Of a stretch of 64,000 bases of DNA, positions 7,001-29,067 are shown one piece after another (within the stretch, counting starts at the first letter, position 1; the number at the start of each line of letters is the position of its first letter). The stretch comes from Patescibacteria group bacterium (GTDB lineage Bacteria; Patescibacteriota; Microgenomatia; UBA1400; PJMF01): positions 387,271 through 451,270 of the forward strand of contig BOKR01000001.1 of assembly GCA_016861085.1 (NCBI GenBank), in the 5' to 3' direction. Below the pieces are notes generated by a model, which worked only from the letters and a program-made list of their open reading frames with translations, made no database searches and was not told the DNA's origin. The translations under genes were made by a program, and so were the position numbers.

Positions 7001-7219
7001 TTCAAAACCATCTTCAAGATTTTCGAAAGTATTGGCCAGCGCAGTATCTTCTACAACAACAGTATCACCTTCATTTTCAATGGTTGTAGTTTGTATATTT
7101 TCTTGTGCGACATCTTGTGCATTTGTTACGGATATACTACCTGTTCGTTGTAGTACGAATGCAACCAAAAAGATGGCTAGCGCAGAAAACATAAAAATAG
7201 GTTTTTTGAACGGCAGCAT
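4040..7219 (-). CDS. Large secreted/cell-surface protein with about 7 FG-GAP/VCBS (integrin-alpha-like beta-propeller) repeats
   Basis: N-terminal signal/TM (MLPFKKPIFMFSALAIFLVAFVL). The unit D.N.DG..D(L/I)(L/I/V).G(S/A)...(D/N)..G....GS(L/V)Y(I/V)I(F/Y) recurs about 7 times (DINNNGTPDLIIGS, DVNGDGKNDLLIGS, DMDGDGKYDLVVGA, DINANGELDLVLGA, DFNNDQKDDILVHS, DLNSDGSKDLLMGA...). 1059 aa. Confidence 0.7.
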   Translation of the reverse strand: MLPFKKPIFMFSALAIFLVAFVLQRTGSISVTNAQDVAQENIQTTTIENEGDTVVVEDTALANTFENLEDGFEKITLELESDSHEITNTQEIMYSEIVAADTLGESTYVLDSGVEIITEYTQKGSASPTLGKSVKQLISLRNPTTNRITLDLNLYHQIDAEAFIWDGTEYQITEEGQEFSAYEGTVDIDLNETLGASEFTEKELPTLTNIPALKGTTISFKTQEGNIATYDFSDLAQLDHTVIVKKEAGQAILTLRLTNIAVEANATTILDPTYSLATSSYYNSKYYGENGATFSYSGLSQFGDLNNNGKPDIVIGSGTADNGGTNTGSVYVIFDTLLDDYTGTGNDIDMADSNSYSLRFDGAVAEDRIGRWTNRIEDVNGDGKNDLLIGSQLTDFNGSSSGSLYVIYNNLLNSYGSKNISLATATNFNLRYDGEAANASLLGGSNVIRIKDINNNGTPDLIIGSANSDFGGANTGSLYIIFDSLIDDYSGTGNTINLGEQDGSDYVNFNIRYDGQTLGDGFGNGLEVADMDGDGKYDLVVGAKNSDYTGGASGSVYIIYNTLVDDYTTVGNVVPLSTTSNFNIRYDGQAAGDNLGYGSLAVGDINANGELDLVLGADLADNNGGSSGSVYIIYDTLIDDYPGTGNTVSLATTSNYNTRINGQAAGDGLAFVSLLTGDFNNDQKDDILVHSVANNGFTDSGSVYIIYNATLNSYSTQSVNLSSTDTYDVRYDGAAASNFLGYHSIYLHDLNSDGSKDLLMGAVLSDDVGRTDSGSLYIIYNFPHSFSLTGPSGAITHSIVNITGNIVATQSTTTISGAQFQVDSNDPNGTWTSCSAIDGSFNSTTEGISCTTPSLSHGWHTMYVRAVDSNNSYTARSSYSTFNFEVRGSTESVGAEPRPDLTSERGDIVSEEGVVTVVPAQTFSFDVYLTVTQMLKGVPTVISNKNITGQICRNQIPFFQVSPVYEIYYSSFFNDAKILSVLYAQPIILAIPYQTQDLLITGLPGKSFNQKNLKIAFSTDKKTWKILPRSVVDLANKTVSVLDKPNGFYMLVASWFGGC

Positions 7220-7333
7220 AAGTAGAAACTAGCACTTACTGTTTACAGTAATAATAGCGTAAAAAAGCCAAAGGCAGTAGTATTGATTGGGTTCTATTTT
7301 TCGGCTGGGTCAGTTTTTTTTATTATAAAGTGA

Positions 7334-8071
7334 TCAATTATGATAATGTCCAAAGGCTTCATGTAATAGTGATTGTTGCATAGTTGAGATATGTGTAGAT
7401 ATGTACGTATTCACGGCTTCAGCAGGACCGTCTCCAAAGTCGTATTCAACTTTCTCGAAAGTCTGGCTCCCAGCATATTTGGAATAGAAAGAGGTCATGT
7501 TTTGAGGCCTGATGTTTTCAGCATCCCCTTTGAATTGGGGAAGGTACTGAGGCTCTTCATCAGTATGAATCGTTAAATCATCTCCAAATTTAACCTTTTT
7601 TGCCCCAATACCTTCTAACAATACTAAAATTTGAGCATTGAATACATCTGCTAATCCGGACCTTCTGTGTTGCTTGCTTATTAAAAATGCTGTCGCTTCT
7701 TCCTGCTCTGAAGCAACTGGAATTTTTTCGAGGTCATGAAATTCAATAGGTAAATCTTCATCTGGAATAGATATGTCGTATTTTTTAAAATCTATAACTG
7801 CTTGTTTCTCAGATATACTACAATCTGCATATCCAACAGGTAATTTTTGATTATCAGCTGTTATTTCCCATAAGCCAAACACCATGTCTTGAACACCCAT
7901 GATTTCTTTACCAAATAAAGCAACTCTAAATTTTTTTCCTTTCCAAGTAAAGTCACTACTTGAACCATCTCTATTTAAAAGAGGTTTTAATTCCTGAAAC
8001 TGCTCAATTATTGGTGCTTCATTGAATATCTCAAGATGTTTTAATTCATTCATAAAAATAGTATATAGCAA
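7334..8071 (-). CDS. Hypothetical protein (245 aa), acidic, no recognisable motif
   Basis: Intact ORF with coding-like composition. Confidence 0.45.
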   Translation of the reverse strand: MLYTIFMNELKHLEIFNEAPIIEQFQELKPLLNRDGSSSDFTWKGKKFRVALFGKEIMGVQDMVFGLWEITADNQKLPVGYADCSISEKQAVIDFKKYDISIPDEDLPIEFHDLEKIPVASEQEEATAFLISKQHRRSGLADVFNAQILVLLEGIGAKKVKFGDDLTIHTDEEPQYLPQFKGDAENIRPQNMTSFYSKYAGSQTFEKVEYDFGDGPAEAVNTYISTHISTMQQSLLHEAFGHYHN

Positions 8072-21941: not shown

Positions 21942-22014
21942 GGGCTCGTGGTGTAGCGGTTAACATGCTTCCCTGTCACGGAAGAGATCGTCGGTTCGAA
22001 TCCGATCGGGCTCG
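21942..22014 (+). tRNA. tRNA-Asp (anticodon GTC)
   Basis: GGGCTCGTGGTGTAGCGGTTAACATGCTTCCCTGTCACGGAAGAGATCGTCGGTTCGAATCCGATCGGGCTCG. Anticodon stem CTTCC/GGAAG with loop CTGTCAC. The acceptor closes with G.U wobbles. Discriminator G. Candidate extended -10 TGgTATAAT at 21903-21911. Confidence 0.85.
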
Positions 22015-22032
22015 CAAGAAACCAAACGATTT

Positions 22033-22878
22033 TTACACCTTCAATCTGGAATAAAATAATTTTAATTTTCTGTGCAGCTGACTTGGAATCCTCATTTGGG
22101 TGACTTCGTATCCTGCCTTGTCCATCATTTTTTGTTTGGCATATTGATCGTGAACTTTTCCCAGCTGTGTGCTTAAATCCCCAAGGTAGTGAAATGTTTG
22201 TATTAGAGATCGATTACTAGGATTTTGCATGGCTGCAACTTGGTATAAATTTTTCAAGTGACGTAAATCTTTTCTGAGATCATGGTATATAGGTACGAGC
22301 ATGTTTGGGCTTTGAATTTGTGCAAGAGATCGTGATTTTATGATATTTATTCTACTTGCACAAACATTTGTAGAAGTGGGAGTAAATGAAAAGGCATTCA
22401 AATCTGAAGACTCAATAAGACTCAAAACTTTCTGGGCATATTTATTTCCTTGTTTAGTGTCGTATGCGTCATTTGTCTTTCCAAGCTGACTCAAGAACGT
22501 ATTGAACGTCTCAGGTGCGCCATCCTCACTGTAGCAATCTAAGGCACTTTTCAAAAGTAACCCTGCTTTTCTTAATTCTTTTAAATATTTTCGAAGCTCA
22601 AAGTTTTGTTTTCTTTCATTCGCAGAAAGTTCTATATATGTTTTAAGTGATTGTGTTAATTGGGTGTTATCAAAGAGAGCTGACCAAAGAGTGGCAGCTG
22701 ATTCTATAGTTTTTTTTACGTCCTCGGGTGATTTGGCAAGTTCAGGAATCACCCTGGGTAACCTAAGTACACGAAAGATTGATTGTTGTAATTTAATGGC
22801 TTCAAATTTTTGGATAATTCCCGTTTGGCCGATTGCTTCTGTTTTAACAGCTCTTCTCATATTTTGGGATTGTAACAT
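22033..22878 (-). CDS. Hypothetical protein (281 aa, predicted helical)
   Basis: Intact ORF, second gene of a two-gene cassette between tRNA-Asp and tRNA-Thr. Confidence 0.45.
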   Translation of the reverse strand: MLQSQNMRRAVKTEAIGQTGIIQKFEAIKLQQSIFRVLRLPRVIPELAKSPEDVKKTIESAATLWSALFDNTQLTQSLKTYIELSANERKQNFELRKYLKELRKAGLLLKSALDCYSEDGAPETFNTFLSQLGKTNDAYDTKQGNKYAQKVLSLIESSDLNAFSFTPTSTNVCASRINIIKSRSLAQIQSPNMLVPIYHDLRKDLRHLKNLYQVAAMQNPSNRSLIQTFHYLGDLSTQLGKVHDQYAKQKMMDKAGYEVTQMRIPSQLHRKLKLFYSRLKV

Positions 22879-22882
22879 TAAA

Positions 22883-23662
22883 TTAATCGGATAAGAGCAC
22901 TAAATCTACTGGTTGATTCCCATATGCTAAATTTGGAATCGGTGCCGAGGAGTAAAAGCCAAGTTTAAATATTTCACAAATGGCTTGATTAAAATCAGAT
23001 CCGAGTTCCATAAATTCATCTGCTGTTAGAGGTCTTTTTTTCTTTCTTTTAAGTTCGGTTTCTTTTTGGCGGAGTACTTGATGCTCTTTTGCTATTACTT
23101 GCTGAAAATTATGCTCAATAAATGCAGCTGCAGTTTTGGTTGTTTTAAGAATTAAAAAAATTCTTCCTTTTGTACTCATTACTAGAAACTGCATATACGG
23201 ATTTGCAATGAAGAATTCAAAATCGGTACTACTAAAAAAAGAAATATAATCGGCAGTAATTCCTTTATCTGGGTGGTTATGTACGACAAAAGATGGTTCC
23301 AAATCTTTTCCTTTTGGAAAATTTGGGGTTACGCTGTTTTCAGTTCCCCAGGTAAAGTTAGCTGTATGGAATTTTTTTTGCTTTTTATCATAAGAGACTG
23401 CTGCAGCGCCCTCTCTCTTTCCTTTTGTTTGATGTGCAAGGATCTTTGCTGCATGTTTGATACCATGTAGTCTGATTTTTTTAGGTAGTCTAGTAATATC
23501 CAAAAATCGTGTCAGCTCATGGCAGAGTCCAAGTGCTTCCAAGAATTTTTCTTCCGGCATTGTAATACCTGCATAAGCATTTAGCAGCTTGTTAAGTTGC
23601 TCTTTTAGTGCAAAATTTTGTTCTGCTGAAGCTTGATCGGCTCGAGTCAATGTTCGTATCAT
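22883..23662 (-). CDS. Hypothetical protein (259 aa) with an HNHP...SxxD motif reminiscent of RadC/JAB-MPN metalloenzymes
   Basis: FVVHNHPDKGITADYISFFSSTD resembles the RadC/JAMM HNHP..S..D signature. Spacing is non-canonical, so this is tentative. Confidence 0.45.
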   Translation of the reverse strand: MIRTLTRADQASAEQNFALKEQLNKLLNAYAGITMPEEKFLEALGLCHELTRFLDITRLPKKIRLHGIKHAAKILAHQTKGKREGAAAVSYDKKQKKFHTANFTWGTENSVTPNFPKGKDLEPSFVVHNHPDKGITADYISFFSSTDFEFFIANPYMQFLVMSTKGRIFLILKTTKTAAAFIEHNFQQVIAKEHQVLRQKETELKRKKKRPLTADEFMELGSDFNQAICEIFKLGFYSSAPIPNLAYGNQPVDLVLLSD

Positions 23663-23724
23663 ATTAATTTTGTGTGTGGGTTAATCGTAACACTTTTATA
23701 TGATAAAATCAGTCAGTTCGATTC

Positions 23725-23797
23725 GCCGAAGTAGCTCAGTTGGTAGAGCACTGGTATCGTAAACCATAGGTCGTGGGTTCGACTCCCACCTTCGGCT
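23725..23797 (+). tRNA. tRNA-Thr (anticodon CGT)
   Basis: GCCGAAGTAGCTCAGTTGGTAGAGCACTGGTATCGTAAACCATAGGTCGTGGGTTCGACTCCCACCTTCGGCT. D-loop AGCTCAGTTGGTAGAGC. Anticodon loop ATCGTAA. T-loop GGTTCGACTCC. Confidence 0.85.
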
Positions 23798-23814
23798 CAC
23801 TAAATTTTGTCATG

Positions 23815-23847
23815 AAAAAAGGCCGCTTGAATAAGCGGCCTTTTTGT
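23815..23847. terminator. Bidirectional intrinsic terminator (GGCCGCTT-GAAT-AAGCGGCC with flanking A6/T5)
   Basis: Perfect 8-bp GC-rich stem. It lies between tRNA-Thr and the convergent minus-strand gene block. Confidence 0.65.
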
Positions 23848-23867
23848 TTAAGTTGTGAATACGGAAT

Positions 23868-23954
23868 TTAGAAAGTGATTTGTGCGCTCGCTGCGAGTAA
23901 AAGTATCAGCGCAATGAGCACAATACCAGCGAGGATCAAGAGTTTCTTTTTCAT
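23868..23954 (-). CDS. Candidate 28-aa hydrophobic micropeptide (MKKKLLILAGIVLIALILLLAASAQITF), translationally coupled (ATGA) to the upstream gene
   Basis: Manual translation of the minus strand. Its ATG overlaps the TGA of the 23951..25129 gene. Basic N-terminus plus a 20-aa hydrophobic helix. It ends just before the terminator hairpin and is absent from the ORF track because of its length. Confidence 0.3.
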   Translation of the reverse strand: MKKKLLILAGIVLIALILLLAASAQITF

Positions 23955-25129
23955 GGTGTGTTTTCCCATGTTGGCACCCAATCCATGCCGATTTCATCTC
24001 GGTAGAATGGGTACAGATTGTGAAAGAATTTATCCATGTCGTTGGATTCGATGACGCGTTTTGGAGCGACACTTCCCAGTTCACTCAGGTAATACCAAAC
24101 GTCAGGTTCAAATGGCCATTCGAGGATGACTTCAAATGAACCGATCCCTGTATAGCCGCTTTTTTTTGCTTCTGCAACGGCTAATGCATAAAGGTTATCG
24201 TATGGCCAGGGATTATTGGCATCTGGTGAAGGGTTATTGAAGTGCCACTCAATTAAGGTCTTGAGGGCGTCCAGGTTGCGAGTAGACCGGGTGCCATCCG
24301 GTTCTAAGGGTGCTATCAGTTCTAGCGTGGCCAGCTCGTTAGCCAGGTTGTCGGCCTGGTCAATGTTGGTTCTGAAGTATTCGGCTTCTTGGGGATCACC
24401 GCCGAACAGTGCAAGATGCAGGCGTTTCGCAAGATCTACCCATTCCATGATGACCCCATTGGGATCATCGAAGGTTTTCTTGACTTCATTCCCCGGTTGA
24501 ACCGAATGAGTTAATAACCCAAAACGGACATGAAGCTCGATGTCCACGGTTTGGGTGTGTGTAATGATCTTATTTTCTGGGTCAATTGCCTGGAAGTCAA
24601 GCGGGTTCAGGGTGAAGTTTTGCAGATCGCTCTGCGGAACTCCGCCCCAAAGCTCTCCGAGTTTCGCGTAACCAACACAATACCGGGTTTTGGGAATCAA
24701 TGTGACACTTCCATTACGAACCTGCTCTACGAGAGGGCTGAAATCATTGTGCTCAGGATAGTGTGCTTGGATGCAGTACAAGCCTAAAGCACCTGTTTCA
24801 ACAAGACTCGAAACACGCAGGTCCATCCCCATGGACCCATACACACCCATTAATGCTTGGCGTAACATTTCGGTATCACCTAGGTGATACACATCTTGCC
24901 ACGGTATTTCAGTGACAAGGGTTTGTTCACCAGCAGGACCAGGGGTTGGAGTTAAATCAGCAATCGCGGTTGCGGCTTCTTCAGCCGCCGATGAGGTTGG
25001 GATGTCCGCTTTATCAGGTGACTTATCATTGGCTTGGTCGTCTGACCACATGCTAAACGCAATGAAAGCCAGAATTGCAAGAATGATTGCCTGAATAATT
25101 GGACTTCCACTCTGTTGATTCTTTTTCAT
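23951..25129 (-). CDS. Secreted/membrane-anchored hypothetical protein (392 aa) in a GC-rich block
   Basis: N-terminal signal-anchor MKKNQQSGSPIIQAIILAILAFIAFSMW. No known motif. Local GC is about 50% versus about 35% in flanking sequence. Confidence 0.55.
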   Translation of the reverse strand: MKKNQQSGSPIIQAIILAILAFIAFSMWSDDQANDKSPDKADIPTSSAAEEAATAIADLTPTPGPAGEQTLVTEIPWQDVYHLGDTEMLRQALMGVYGSMGMDLRVSSLVETGALGLYCIQAHYPEHNDFSPLVEQVRNGSVTLIPKTRYCVGYAKLGELWGGVPQSDLQNFTLNPLDFQAIDPENKIITHTQTVDIELHVRFGLLTHSVQPGNEVKKTFDDPNGVIMEWVDLAKRLHLALFGGDPQEAEYFRTNIDQADNLANELATLELIAPLEPDGTRSTRNLDALKTLIEWHFNNPSPDANNPWPYDNLYALAVAEAKKSGYTGIGSFEVILEWPFEPDVWYYLSELGSVAPKRVIESNDMDKFFHNLYPFYRDEIGMDWVPTWENTP

Positions 25130-25216
25130 TTTTTTTACCTATAAAAAAAGTAGATCAGCGCCGCACGAATATTCGTGCAGCGCTGATAATTGAAGTTTAA
25201 AATTTTATAAGGGACT

Positions 25217-26821
25217 TTATGGTGCCTGAATCGGTCCAAAACATACCCCCGAGTTTTGATACTCGGCGTAGGATTTTCCTTCCCACAGGTAAGTCGCGCT
25301 ACATTTGCCAACCCAGAATTCACCACCGAGATCTAACACTGCCGCAACGTCTTGGAGATTTACATAGTCTGTATGTCCCTGATCGCAACTACCAATGGCA
25401 ATGGTGACCCAGGTGCCGTTCCAGTCACCGCAGCCGAAACCAGACACAAAAAGGTTGGGGTTCCAGACAAGTGTTACGTAGTCTGAGAAGCTCCCATATG
25501 ACCCAATCGGTGTTGGAGTGGGCAATGGCGGAGGAGTCGGAGTTGGAGTTCCTACCGGATACGTGACCCGGCAGGGGAACATCCATAGCCCGTCTTTGTA
25601 GCACTCGTTTCCATTAGAAATGCCATCCCCGGTTCCGAACATAGGCACGGTGCGGACCTGGCTAATGGTCCAGCTCGCAGTGACGCCACCTTCAAGAACC
25701 AATGTGTCCGGAAGATCAAGAATCTGCAGGACGCAGGTTATATATTTAAAGGCGTCAGGGCCATTTCCACCAAGCCGATTAGAGTAACCACGCAATCCAC
25801 CTTCTTCGAACCTGAATTCGATATACTCAACCCCTTTGTCCCAGATGGGCAAGGAATCCAGGCTGAATAGCGATGTAGCTGGTTGAAACGACAAGCACAT
25901 GGCTTGCCAACTCTCAACAACTTTCGTTGCCACTACAGGATTCTTTGCTTCGGTCGGCACTACCGGTGCGTTTGGCATCGGTGTGGCGGGCACCATAGTA
26001 GGAATGTCCGCGATTTGGGGTGTCGGTTGAGGAGTTTCTGTTGGCGCAGGGCTTGGAGTAGGCGTGCGAGTTTGAGGAGCGGGAGTAGGAATAACACTCC
26101 AGTTGGTGTTTCCAGGTTGATTCTTGTTCGGGAATGGCGTTGGGGTTACCAATGTGCCATATCCAGGGAGTTCAATCCATCCCACTTCAGGCATGTTTTT
26201 CGAAACTTTGATGTCTTGGAGATTCTCCTTGATAAGAGTCAACAGTCCTGGCCAGTTTGGATAGGCTACGGTCTCTGTAAGCCAATCGAGCCCAGAGATT
26301 TTTCGCTCCGGTTTGTCTTCAGTAGCCTCGATAGTGCCTTCCAACTTTAGGAATTTTTGGTACTGGACAATGTTGAAACAATACCTCGAAGATTGTTGTT
26401 GCAGCTTCGGGTATGGTTCCAACATAACGCCAAGGGCATCAAATTCGATGCGGCCAATTCCTTCAGGACATTCAAAACCCGCGCCATCATTTTTCGATTC
26501 GTCATTGTCGGCTTGGTCTTCAACACCAAAGAAACTGGTAATTTTGTTCCACTCATATTGTCCCCTTGGGGTTTGGAAGAAACCCATAACCAACATTAAC
26601 AAAACCAGAACAACAATAGTCCAAGCCAAAGTTTTAGCATTAGGATCGGTTTTGATAAAGTTCCCAAGATCCTTTGCTTCCGATTTTAGTTCTTGACCAC
26701 TCCGTCTCCGGGCGTTTACCCGGCGAGTGCCAGCAGGGATACTGCTGGGCGTCATGTTTCTTTCTCCGCCCCCTTTTGATTCAGTTGTGTTTGGCAGAGT
26801 TGTTTTCATTTGATTCACCAT
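25217..26821 (-). CDS. Membrane-anchored secreted protein with Pro/Thr-rich linkers (TPTPSPAPTETPQPTPQ; TPTPTPPPLPTPTP) and a Cys-rich C-terminus
   Basis: N-terminal TM TLAWTIVVLVLLMLVMGFF. PT-linkers as in actinobacterial surface/secreted proteins. GC-rich codon usage. Confidence 0.55.
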   Translation of the reverse strand: MVNQMKTTLPNTTESKGGGERNMTPSSIPAGTRRVNARRRSGQELKSEAKDLGNFIKTDPNAKTLAWTIVVLVLLMLVMGFFQTPRGQYEWNKITSFFGVEDQADNDESKNDGAGFECPEGIGRIEFDALGVMLEPYPKLQQQSSRYCFNIVQYQKFLKLEGTIEATEDKPERKISGLDWLTETVAYPNWPGLLTLIKENLQDIKVSKNMPEVGWIELPGYGTLVTPTPFPNKNQPGNTNWSVIPTPAPQTRTPTPSPAPTETPQPTPQIADIPTMVPATPMPNAPVVPTEAKNPVVATKVVESWQAMCLSFQPATSLFSLDSLPIWDKGVEYIEFRFEEGGLRGYSNRLGGNGPDAFKYITCVLQILDLPDTLVLEGGVTASWTISQVRTVPMFGTGDGISNGNECYKDGLWMFPCRVTYPVGTPTPTPPPLPTPTPIGSYGSFSDYVTLVWNPNLFVSGFGCGDWNGTWVTIAIGSCDQGHTDYVNLQDVAAVLDLGGEFWVGKCSATYLWEGKSYAEYQNSGVCFGPIQAP

Positions 26822-26824
26822 TTT

Positions 26825-28606
26825 TTATTTGGAGCCGAATTGTTCTTGAAACATCAACCAGCTTTCCATCAACGCTCTGGATATAAAATATCCAGCGTCT
26901 CCCATCCCTCGGTAGTTGTTCCACATTAAATTGTTGAACAACCCCTTGTACTGACACTTGTTGATGTCAGGAGGATCACATGGGCTGCCGGCATACCTAT
27001 GTGCATAGGTTGCTTGATCGGTGTTATGACTCATCACACCTTGACTAACCGCCCAGTTTGAATGGGCAAGCATTGCGTCAAGATAGATTTGCATATCACC
27101 GCCAGGAAATGCACTGAAGGTATTAAAGAACCACTGTTTTTCTTGCAGTGGTCCCATTGCTAGTGCCGAGCTGGTTGTAAATGGTCCATTACCGTTTCCA
27201 GTCTCCTGGAGTTTTTGAGTGAGGTTGTCCCATATGGGAGCTCCCCCAAGCTGATGAACGGTTAAGGCCGCCAATACCGCCTCATACGGCGGGGATGCAG
27301 TATAAGTATAATTAGCCTTCTTTCCACATGCTTCTTTGGAGATGCCCAATGTTTTGCAGTCGTGCCAGTACCAAAGGGTTTCGTATTGAAGGTTACCTTG
27401 CTGCAGCCACTCGAACCAAGCTTGTGTGCCTGGATCAAGTCCAGCCAAAAGGGCTGGTCTCGTTTGGAAATTTAACACCTGAGGAGTGTATGAGAGTTGA
27501 ATCACCTCAGATGGGATTATGGAGGAGTAGCCATAGGCATTTGCCATTGGCTCAGGAGGTCTTGGGAAGATTATTTCTACTTCCTCTTCTGGTTTTGGTG
27601 GGCTTTCGAATGGCTCATTTTCGGTGACATAAGTAGTTGTATTTGAGTCAGGCTCACTGGCTTTCACCGGTGATCTTGACCAAACGTAAGCTACTATGAC
27701 ACCAGTTAGCAAAACCGCCCACATCGGCCACCAGGATCGTGTTCCCTTGTTTCCCCACAATAGAATTAGAAGTGCTCCTACTAAGAAAAACCACCCATTT
27801 TTAGTTTCTACGAGTTTTGCTCGTAGAGGATGGTCCGCTTGGATATAGGTTTTTTCCCAGTACTCTGTGACTGCTTCTTGCAGTGGAACGTCATTGTTGG
27901 GATTGGAGTCTTGGGTTTCTTCAGTATTCTCAATTTCGGCTATACCGGAACGATCCAAGGTGTCCCACGCTACCTCACCAGGAGGTTGTGGGTTTGGTGA
28001 ACCGTCATCACGGAGGTACTCTGGGATGGTGTCGATACTAACTTGTCCTAGTACATCACCAGGGAAGTCAGTATAGGTAACTGTACCATAGTACACTGTT
28101 CCTGGTTCAACAAATTTTCCGGTTAACTTATCATAGAGTGTTAGATGGGTGTGTTCGCCGAAAGAGTTCCCAAGATTCGCTTCCGTTCCAACTCTCTGTC
28201 CAGCTTGGACGTATTGTCCCACCGACACATTATAGACACCATGAAGGTATATAACCTTCCACCGGCTATTTTCAATTATGAGATACGGATTTCCGTATCC
28301 TTCAGTTGAATTACCGGTGATGGTGCCATTTATGCTTGAGAACAATGGCCCTCCATTGATACTGCTGTTGTAGTCGTAGGCGCACCACGATGGGTTTCCA
28401 GCCCACCCCCAACCGTCTTTATGACAGTAGTACGGCTCTGCAGCCGTACCATAGTTAAACACAAAGAAGTTTGGGTACGGTGGAACAAACACATTATCTT
28501 CATCAGAAGTTTGACGCGGCGAAGCCGCTGTGACTGCTAGCGCCAGGAGTATGAAACCTAACGCCCAAAGCAAACGATATTTTGAGAATTGACGCATGGT
28601 ATTCAC
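26825..28606 (-). CDS. M23 (LytM-type) metallopeptidase-domain protein with signal peptide, a central pair of TM helices and a large C-terminal domain
   Basis: Signal MRQFSKYRLLWALGFILLALAVTAAS. M23 core ...GQYVQAGQRVGTEANLGNSFGEHTHLTLYD (H.H and G.TG motifs). Hydrophobic segments WFFLVGALLILLWG and WAVLLTGVIVAYVWS. Confidence 0.6.
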   Translation of the reverse strand: MNTMRQFSKYRLLWALGFILLALAVTAASPRQTSDEDNVFVPPYPNFFVFNYGTAAEPYYCHKDGWGWAGNPSWCAYDYNSSINGGPLFSSINGTITGNSTEGYGNPYLIIENSRWKVIYLHGVYNVSVGQYVQAGQRVGTEANLGNSFGEHTHLTLYDKLTGKFVEPGTVYYGTVTYTDFPGDVLGQVSIDTIPEYLRDDGSPNPQPPGEVAWDTLDRSGIAEIENTEETQDSNPNNDVPLQEAVTEYWEKTYIQADHPLRAKLVETKNGWFFLVGALLILLWGNKGTRSWWPMWAVLLTGVIVAYVWSRSPVKASEPDSNTTTYVTENEPFESPPKPEEEVEIIFPRPPEPMANAYGYSSIIPSEVIQLSYTPQVLNFQTRPALLAGLDPGTQAWFEWLQQGNLQYETLWYWHDCKTLGISKEACGKKANYTYTASPPYEAVLAALTVHQLGGAPIWDNLTQKLQETGNGNGPFTTSSALAMGPLQEKQWFFNTFSAFPGGDMQIYLDAMLAHSNWAVSQGVMSHNTDQATYAHRYAGSPCDPPDINKCQYKGLFNNLMWNNYRGMGDAGYFISRALMESWLMFQEQFGSK

Positions 28607-29067
28607 CTGGCGTTTTTTGTGTTACTCCAAAGTACGTTATGGAGTTTGTTCCCTTATATATCACTGCAAAAAGGGAGCCAGATAAAGGCACCAACCGTTG
28701 TACATTTTTTCCAACTATTGCTACCCATGTTTGGCCCACTTGAAGCAGTGATACTTTTTTCCGTATTCACTTGTTAAAGTACATTTTTTGTATGCAAAAA
28801 CCGCCCAGCGAACTGGACGTATGCAACAAAAAATTTGACTGGCTTACTTATTTCTTTTCAGCCGGTATGTTCAAAGAAAATCGGTAACCAAGTATTCTCT
28901 TGCAATAAGAGATACTTAGCCCATATCTTTGACAAAGTGGATTATACTATGGGACTATTATCTTGGCAAGAATCATTGAAAAACATACAAACAACATCAT
29001 CAGTATAATTTCAATGTTATAAAAACTTGCATCAAGTTTCCGGGGTACTGTATACTATTGAATATAT

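Follow-up and report, generated by a model that had tools for sequence, protein, structure and literature searches.

A JAMM-like candidate hydrolase in a strain-variable, tRNA-bracketed slot of a Patescibacterium

Introduction

The E...HxH...SxxD catalytic set of the JAMM/MPN+ metalloproteases, a group that includes AMSH/STAMBP, Sst2, BRCC36, Rpn11/CSN5, Prok-JAB, Cap3, Bil, and Bub, is also found in the family of a 259-residue protein encoded by the Patescibacteria metagenome-assembled genome 'BroJett025'. The gene for this protein, here called A (locus tag 03980; 22883–23662, minus strand), and the adjacent gene for a 281-residue protein, B (locus tag 03970; 22033–22878, minus strand), lie in a 64,000-nucleotide stretch of a 1.17-Mb contig (BOKR01000001.1, positions 387,271–451,270), a stretch that we refer to as the window; all coordinates without another label are window positions. 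Both genes sit between tRNA-Asp with anticodon GTC (21942–22015, plus strand) and tRNA-Thr with anticodon CGT (23725–23798, plus strand), an interval that we call the slot. A sequence-only reading of the window had likened an HNHP...SxxD motif in A to those of RadC and JAB enzymes and proposed that A and B form a small two-gene defence or addiction module. Here, we report that A is, as judged from family conservation and a predicted structure, a JAB/MPN+-like protein with a catalytically complete site that falls outside every curated family, and that the slot is accessory rather than part of the core genome.

Within the JAMM/MPN+ group, the likeness to A extends from the catalytic set to the positions of the catalytic residues, which in the model of A fall on equivalent secondary-structure elements, and to the best matches among solved structures. 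Helices that follow the MPN core are a further feature common to A and BRCC36. A differs from the described members in having helical extensions of ~80 residues at the N-terminus and ~55 residues at the C-terminus, in the spacing of its motif, in scoring below the curated thresholds, and in having no genes for ubiquitin-like proteins (Ubl), E1, E2, or CD-NTase nearby.

A second point of comparison is DUF4329, the Tox-JAB-2 clade of Zhang et al. (2012; PMC3482391). Its signature is E, H[ST]H, S, D, its members have been described from RHS toxins, giant viruses, and Xanthomonas phages, and its proposed activity is that of a nuclease and not of a peptidase. No other Pfam family is touched by A itself, the E, HxH, S, D signature is the same, the clade is a divergent JAB branch without Ubl context, and its occurrence in phages and nucleocytoplasmic large DNA viruses (NCLDVs) parallels the best structural matches of A. 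Unlike these toxins, A appears to be a stand-alone cytoplasmic protein without RHS, type VI secretion, or type VII secretion trafficking domains and without an Imm-NTF2-2-type neighbour, and it has HNH where the clade has H[ST]H, although two of its homologues (P0007 and P0008) have HSH. RadC/YicR proteins (UPF0758, PF04002) have an HNHP motif in common with A, and phage RadC proteins are among the weaker matches of A in the BFVD database of viral protein models, but A lacks the N-terminal helix-hairpin-helix-type region of RadC, and RadC is widely conserved whereas the family of A is extremely rare and strain-variable.

The slot itself invites comparison with flexible genomic islets that are flanked by tRNA genes and exchanged through homologous recombination, in which conserved tRNA anchors enclose unrelated cargo whose presence varies within a species. 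The same features are seen here, but the slot is very small (1.2–3 kb), contains no integrase or attachment (att) site, carries cargo of native composition, and belongs to a Patescibacterium with a reduced genome. The hallmarks of tRNA-integrating genomic islands, namely an integrase, an att repeat of the tRNA 3' end, and atypical composition, were not found in the slot.

Results

A belongs to a very small family that conserves the JAMM catalytic residues

We searched for relatives of A in several sequence collections. A k-mer-indexed search of 5.8 billion proteins returned only A itself, and a metagenome scan using A alone returned nothing. An exhaustive HMMER search of 1.84 billion cluster representatives identified six relatives, consisting of P0003 (262 residues, 42% identity to A), P0004 (260 residues, 41% identity), P0007 (277 residues), P0008 (199 residues), and the fragments P0005 and P0006. 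An additional homologue of 257 residues with 46% identity, at a locus that we call L009, was recovered when the metagenome scan was run with a four-sequence alignment, and a profile search with the family yielded no further members. Neither tblastn of 50,697 phage genomes nor scans of IMG/VR found relatives of A or B, and there were no paralogues of either protein inside the window.

Across six intact members of the family, which are 25–45% identical to A, only 12 alignment columns are invariant. Five of these 12 columns, E84 (23411–23413), H128 (23279–23281), H130 (23273–23275), S144 (23231–23233), and D147 (23222–23224; all minus strand), make up the complete JAMM motif E...HxH...SxxD. Residues 125–147 of A read FVVHNHPDKGITADYISFFSSTD and contain the HNHP...SSTD motif. 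On its own, a loose HxH-x(5–14)-SxxD pattern is weak evidence because it occurs twice among the 24.5k residues of the long open reading frames (ORFs) of the window, the second time in the PHP domain of DnaE; the weight of the assignment comes from invariance across the family and from the fold.

Comparisons with curated profiles gave matches that were below threshold but coincided with the motif. A matched DUF4329 (Tox-JAB-2, PF14220) with an E-value of 0.036 and a score of 14.5 bits compared to a cut-off of 28.6 bits, with residues 82–175 aligned to positions 19–108 of the 116-position profile; this profile was matched by one of the seven members of the family. P0007 matched Prok-JAB with an E-value of 8e-4 (19.7 bits compared to a cut-off of 25), precisely over its HSHPD...SFFSSQD segment. 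Taken with the invariant residues and the structural model described below, the DUF4329 match places the JAB/MPN+ core of A at approximately residues 81–175 (23138–23422, minus strand). Searches of A against PADLOC, PHROGs, and NCBIfam found nothing, and A contains no transmembrane or hydrophobic segment, signal peptide, repeats, or secretion or trafficking domain.

The proposed kinship with RadC fared less well. Pfam RadC did not match A even at E ≤ 10, and alignment of the A family to Escherichia coli YicR (RadC) by hhalign gave a probability of 1.2% and an E-value of 0.045 and matched E84 and HNHP to ERE and HNHPS in YicR. On the basis of the missing Pfam match and the low hhalign probability, we rejected membership of A in the RadC family.

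The predicted structure of A resembles JAMM/MPN proteins

An AlphaFold2 model of A calculated from a seven-sequence alignment had a mean pLDDT of 82.3 and a pTM of 0.80, whereas a single-sequence model was poor (pLDDT 48). In the former model, E84 opens a strand (residues 84–92), the HxH motif closes a second strand (residues 121–129), and S144 and D147 are at the beginning of a helix (residues 145–153). These secondary-structure positions place the predicted catalytic residues as they are placed in JAMM enzymes. The helical extensions on either side of the core span approximately residues 7–79 and 177–231.

When the model was compared to solved structures using Foldseek, almost all of the top ~30 matches in the Protein Data Bank (PDB) were JAMM/MPN proteins. 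The best match was AMSH (3rzu; E-value 2.7e-3, probability 0.98–0.99), and further matches included STAMBP, BRCC36, Sst2, a bacterial Ubl-deubiquitinase (8tyx), Cap3 of CBASS (9ild), BubCD (9ea8), Rpn11 homologues, and CSN5. The TM-scores of these alignments were modest (0.27–0.42), as would be consistent with a divergent core carrying N- and C-terminal helices. The earlier identification of a JAB-type signature thus gained support from five invariant residues, sub-threshold Prok-JAB and DUF4329 matches, and a predicted JAB/MPN-like fold. APOBEC and dCMP-deaminase structures also appeared among the matches, but a deaminase fold for A was rejected, as these matches were far weaker than those to JAMM proteins and A has no C/HxE...PCxxC motif.

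Matches in BFVD were stronger than those in the PDB. The best was a 565-residue phage 'minor capsid protein' (E-value 8.9e-7), followed by other phage and NCLDV proteins with E-values from 1e-5 to 1e-3 and, lower, by phage RadC and an 'MPN domain-containing protein'. A link between the 'minor capsid protein' matches and MuF toxins is only a lead; the MuF-toxin paper makes no mention of JAB or DUF4329.

The contents of the slot vary among relatives and strains

We located the corresponding loci in related genomes via LemA, which is encoded in the left flank of the slot (80–88% amino-acid identity), and via homologues of A. In these relatives, the two tRNA genes are kept, the cargo between them differs but always has the orientation of A and B, and the slot measures ~1–3 kb. 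In L008 (LemA 80% identical), the slot contains a single gene for a 171-residue, CPBP-like membrane protein (7195–7710 of that contig), and in L007 (LemA 88% identical) it contains genes for a 166-residue HNH-like protein (149–649) and an 82-residue ORF. The L004 contig, which runs from tRNA-Thr (98% identical) to tRNA-Asp (96% identical), encodes the A homologue P0004, a 40-residue ORF, and a 178-residue CPBP-like protein (1466–2002). In L012/L013, where the flank is 71% identical in nucleotide sequence, a decayed homologue of A (57% amino-acid identity) is accompanied by a major facilitator superfamily transporter and an HNH-like gene. The tRNA-Asp gene is conserved in L004, L006, L007, and L008, and the tRNA-Thr gene is 97–98% identical in L008 and L004 and also present in L012, L013, and L018–L020.

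Variation was also evident among much closer strains. Contigs from three other samples (L015–L017) are 100% identical to the window and contain A and B. Three additional ~1-kb contigs from other samples (L018–L020) run from tRNA-Thr to tRNA-Asp, are 99.67% identical in nucleotide sequence across B, and carry B alone; the B of these strains lacking A is 100% identical. The allele without A came from samples SRR31091722, SRR31091724, and SRR31091725, and the allele with A is represented by DRR258781, SRR8466088, and SRR7904081. In these contigs, a ~90-nt leader replaces A and ends in a ~20-nt remnant of an A-type 3' end (...DLVLVSD*), which is followed by the same 4-nt spacer and the ATG of B. 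The exact sequence of A was found on long contigs containing both A and B only. In the decayed homologue of L012/L013, codon 78 is TAA, the motif reads HNNPD rather than HNHPD (H130N), and the 3' end is scrambled and contains an additional stop. These sequence comparisons show at least two losses of A, one through deletion and the other through a nonsense mutation with loss of a predicted catalytic histidine, and B persists without A.

With contents that differ between the same tRNA genes in five relatives or strains, the slot is accessory and not core. The idea of a variable, tRNA-bracketed interval is supported, and the cassette is not universally conserved. DNA similarity among relatives ends precisely at the tRNA boundaries (for tRNA-Asp, at the 3' end of the gene), with the exception of a conserved AT-rich element, TATATGATAAAATCA (23697–23711, plus strand), located 13 nt upstream of tRNA-Thr. 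This element is shared by L004, L007, and L018–L020 as TGATTTTAnCATA, is present in a weaker form, TATTCTATAAAT, in L008, and is the sole conserved sequence within the slot; it probably corresponds to the −10 box of the promoter that drives tRNA-Thr. Assembly contigs break at these tRNA genes in L004, L006, L007, and L018–L020, as would be expected if co-existing variants share the tRNA sequences.

Several features of the alternative cargo were noted. The membrane proteins of L004 and L008 are multi-pass, 49% identical to each other, and contain, by eye, EExxxR, FxxxH, and HxxxN motifs, as is typical of intramembrane proteases of the CPBP/Abi type; they weakly matched the NCBIfam myxosortase/CPBP core model (E-value 0.012) and had no Pfam match. 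The HNH-like protein has a CxxC...HMDH...CxxC...HH pattern, its copies in L007 and L013 (2590–3006 of the latter) are 73% identical, and its weak matches were to the HNH region of IscB (5e-6), the HNH nuclease YajD (2e-4), and ZorE (~1e-3). The database entries for L006 (CAZDWQ010000068.1), L007 (CAZZDG010000014.1), and L008 (CAZUHV010000002.1) are titled 'uncultured Pseudomonadales bacterium'. These contigs are syntenic with the window genome, 74–78% identical to it in nucleotide sequence, and encode LemA proteins with 80–88% identity, and on this comparison the Pseudomonadales label looks wrong.

Homologues of A at other loci have no B-like partner

Away from the slot, homologues of A were found in different gene contexts. 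In L009, an intact homologue stands alone, with a divergent glycosyltransferase gene on one side, a convergent membrane-protein gene on the other, and no tRNA gene present. In L001, P0008 is likewise solitary, flanked by an NAD synthase gene in divergent orientation and a 103-residue ORF in convergent orientation, and in L002, P0007 lies downstream of an AI-2E transporter gene. Within the tRNA-bracketed L004 locus, the genes that follow P0004 are unlike B. No B-like ORF was present beside A homologues or in the related loci, the neighbourhoods of A homologues contained no Ubl, E1, E2, CD-NTase, or known defence genes, and no genes of a Ubl-conjugation operon (E1, E2, Ubl, or CD-NTase) were found adjoining A. 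PADLOC-DB v2 gave no match for A, B, or five A homologues; its only signal was the generic HNH similarity (ZorE) of the slot gene in relatives.

B is a basic (pI 9.8), soluble protein without a transmembrane or other hydrophobic segment and without a signal-like N-terminus. A k-mer-prefiltered search of 5.8 billion proteins returned only B itself, and nothing significant was found for B in Pfam, PADLOC, PHROGs, NCBIfam, or PDB sequences. Neither B nor the other neighbours matched an immunity family such as Imm-NTF2-2, and blastp and hhalign detected no relationship between A and B. On these searches, B is a strict and apparently lineage-specific orphan.

Organization and composition of the locus

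ARAGORN, Rfam (61.5 bits for tRNA-Asp and 69.4 bits for tRNA-Thr), and the ORF list agree on the arrangement that had been described from the sequence, in which the plus-strand tRNA genes enclose just two long ORFs, A and B, each encoded on the minus strand. The chance of 281 stop-free codons in DNA of this base composition (36% G+C) is ~1.6e-9, and the lengths of A and B are for this reason not attributable to chance. The TAA stop of A is followed by 4 nt and then by the ATG of B (junction GATTAATTTAATG), and translational coupling of the two genes is likely. A Shine-Dalgarno motif is missing from both genes, which is normal here, as the motif is present in 7 of 49 window ORFs. When the 25 nt upstream of window genes were examined, many had a TATACT/TATAAT-like box ~5–12 nt before the start codon, and this placement suggests that leaderless mRNAs or mRNAs with very short leaders may be widespread in this genome.

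A perfect 13-bp hairpin with 100% complementary arms lies between A5 and T5 runs at 23816–23845, as identified by a terminator scan. It is likely to be a bidirectional terminator between tRNA-Thr and a convergent gene for a 392-residue protein, and as such would be likely to insulate tRNA-Thr and the A–B unit from the genes beyond. With a terminator at this position, transcription of A and B must begin within 23663–23815. In Rfam searches of the slot, only the two tRNA genes scored above threshold, and sub-threshold 'leader' matches corresponded to the terminator hairpin. The left flank encodes housekeeping proteins (LemA, an HtpX-type M48 peptidase, GatC/A/B, and DnaE), and the other side encodes proteins with transmembrane segments or rich in proline and threonine.

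No integrase is encoded among the window ORFs, and no att-like direct repeats of either tRNA end were found. The G+C content at third codon positions (GC3) is 0.25 for A and 0.30 for B, compared to 0.26–0.31 for DnaE, GatB, LemA, and HtpX; thus, the composition of A and B is native and bears no foreign sign.

A different picture was observed for a 5.2-kb block at 23846–29045, 3' of tRNA-Thr, which is missing from two syntenic relatives, L008 and L012. In both, tRNA-Thr is directly followed by the homologue of window sequence from 29046 onward. The composition of the block is atypical (GC 0.47–0.49 and GC3 0.44–0.48, compared to ~0.38 and 0.25–0.31 for its neighbours), and its minus-strand genes encode proteins of 392 residues (23951–25129), 534 residues (25217–26821), and 593 residues with a Peptidase_M23 domain (26825–28606). 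No att repeat was found for this block, which from its sequence looks like a separately acquired island beside tRNA-Thr. Residues 133–219 of the 534-residue protein gave a sub-threshold match to Pfam UEV, the ubiquitin E2 variant family (E-value 2.8e-4; 21.2 bits compared to 27). This protein is membrane-anchored, Pro/Thr-rich, and encoded ~1.5 kb from A. We discounted the match as probably spurious or unrelated to A because tRNA-Thr and the terminator intervene and because the protein is absent near other members of the A family.

Discussion

We favour, with a probability of roughly 60%, the interpretation that A is a stand-alone hydrolase of the JAMM/MPN+ type and that B is a non-obligate orphan that shares with it a slot exchanged by recombination without an integrase. 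Under this interpretation, the interval between tRNA-Asp(GTC) and tRNA-Thr(CGT) would be a strain-variable accessory slot whose cargo is swapped or lost via recombination, and the two conserved tRNA genes would serve as anchors for homologous recombination, the simplest mechanism of exchange. A would be a cytoplasmic Zn-dependent hydrolase in which E84 acts as the general base, H128, H130, and D147 bind Zn, and S144 contributes to the oxyanion site. It would act alone, as intact homologues are monocistronic in L009 and L001 and other genes follow the homologue in L004, and would most likely cut a peptide or isopeptide bond of a protein substrate. We consider a protein substrate more likely because the closest solved folds are those of deubiquitinase-type JAMM enzymes. 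Cleavage of nucleic acid is an alternative suggested by the weak affinity of A to two branches, Tox-JAB-2 and RadC, that have been put forward as nucleases without proof. B would be a lineage-specific orphan that is co-transcribed and translationally coupled with A by happenstance.

Several observations weigh against this interpretation. The family passes no curated hidden Markov model threshold, A has no match to JAB or Prok-JAB at E ≤ 10, and the family profile retrieves no JAMM chain from PDB sequences, for which phmmer and hmmsearch with A or the profile gave spurious matches only (OspA repeats and SAS-5). HxH and S are separated by 13 residues in A and by 6 in P0007, compared to 7 in canonical JAMM proteins. 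The model of A was built from just seven sequences, and the range of its TM-scores to solved JAMM structures is modest. The orphan status of B comes from a k-mer-prefiltered rather than an exhaustive search. Finally, a toxin–immunity pair could likewise explain the tight 4-nt junction between A and B, the persistence of B after loss of A, and the repeated inactivation of A.

In such a pair, A would be an intracellular nuclease or peptidase toxin resembling Tox-JAB-2/DUF4329, B would be its cognate immunity protein or antitoxin, and the slot would be a site for exchange of conflict genes. The order of toxin then immunity gene with a 4-nt spacer is as expected for this arrangement, the sole Pfam similarity of A is to a polymorphic-toxin domain that also occurs in phages and NCLDVs, and the BFVD matches of A to phage and NCLDV proteins fit the same clade. 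Deletion of A with B left intact and pseudogenization of A in L013 are routes of decay that a pair of this kind permits, and HNH-like and CPBP-like genes also gather in the slot in relatives. Nevertheless, the three intact homologues of A whose downstream sequence is readable, in L004, L009, and L001, occur without a B-like gene, and two of these three lack any co-directional downstream gene; a lone toxin should not be maintained, and these solitary homologues speak against a toxin function. In addition, A has no secretion or trafficking domain or signal peptide, B falls outside immunity families such as Imm-NTF2-2, the DUF4329 score is far under its cut-off, and PADLOC was negative. We therefore regard a toxin–immunity pair as unlikely, and as slightly less likely still its bolder form, in which A and B would constitute a new intracellular conflict module whose Tox-JAB-2-like metallohydrolase toxin is curbed by an orphan immunity protein or antitoxin that evolves fast. 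The corresponding view of the slot, as an integrase-free exchange site that shuffles toxins, orphan immunity genes, HNH nucleases, and CPBP-type proteases, we hold to be equally doubtful. A natural strain that lacks A and carries B excludes the reversed polarity, in which B would be the toxin and A the antitoxin.

The remaining explanations are more improbable. The position of the cassette between tRNA genes, the resemblance of A to multi-domain phage 'minor capsid' proteins and other viral proteins, and the HNH-like gene in the same slot of relatives might indicate cargo left by a tRNA-targeting integrative element (a prophage or genomic island) whose integrase is now missing. This origin is very unlikely given the lack of an integrase and of direct repeats of the tRNA 3' ends, the native composition of A and B, the lack of relatives of either protein in the phage genomes and IMG/VR, the lack of a PHROGs match for A, and a slot of merely 1.2–3 kb in every relative. 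We see a slimmer chance that A and B form a two-gene anti-phage system, with sensing or processing of a target by the JAB protein and the effector role falling to B. JAB/MPN+ enzymes occur in CBASS (Cap3), Bil, and Bub, such enzymes are among the fold matches of A, and the locus is strain-variable and beside tRNA genes. However, no PADLOC model matches A, B, or the A homologues; the flanks encode LemA, HtpX, and GatCAB rather than E1, E2, Ubl, or CD-NTase proteins; A and B occur together in this strain only; homologues of A lie near glycosyltransferase or NAD-synthase genes and not in defence islands; and B survives without A. A housekeeping role for A, as a RadC-like DNA-repair or core protein in a cassette conserved throughout the lineage, is effectively refuted by the presence/absence data. 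The resemblance of HNHP to the HNHPSG of RadC and the register of E84 and HNHP with YicR are outweighed by an hhalign probability near 1%, by the missing Pfam RadC match, by the absence, deletion, or pseudogenization of A in close relatives, and by the recovery of just six matches among 1.84 billion representatives.

Of the sequence-only interpretation as a whole, the JAMM motif and the variable slot stand. The two-gene defence or addiction module does not, as A and B are not co-conserved, homologues of A are solitary, one strain has B without A, searches of PADLOC, PHROGs, and NCBIfam were negative, and neither an integrase, an att repeat, nor an unusual composition marks the cassette as inserted.

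Our results describe a new, very small family in a known superfamily; they do not open up a different kind of biology, and nothing in them points to a new defence system. If our favoured interpretation of A as a stand-alone JAMM/MPN+-type hydrolase is correct, it would add to the JAB/MPN+ superfamily a very rare, unannotated branch that has an intact catalytic site without Ubl partners and that resembles the RadC and Tox-JAB-2 branches in being poorly understood. The slot would then also show, at the resolution of a single species, a Patescibacterium with a reduced genome swapping and losing accessory genes without an integrase, a case that may be useful for understanding strain variation in the candidate phyla radiation.

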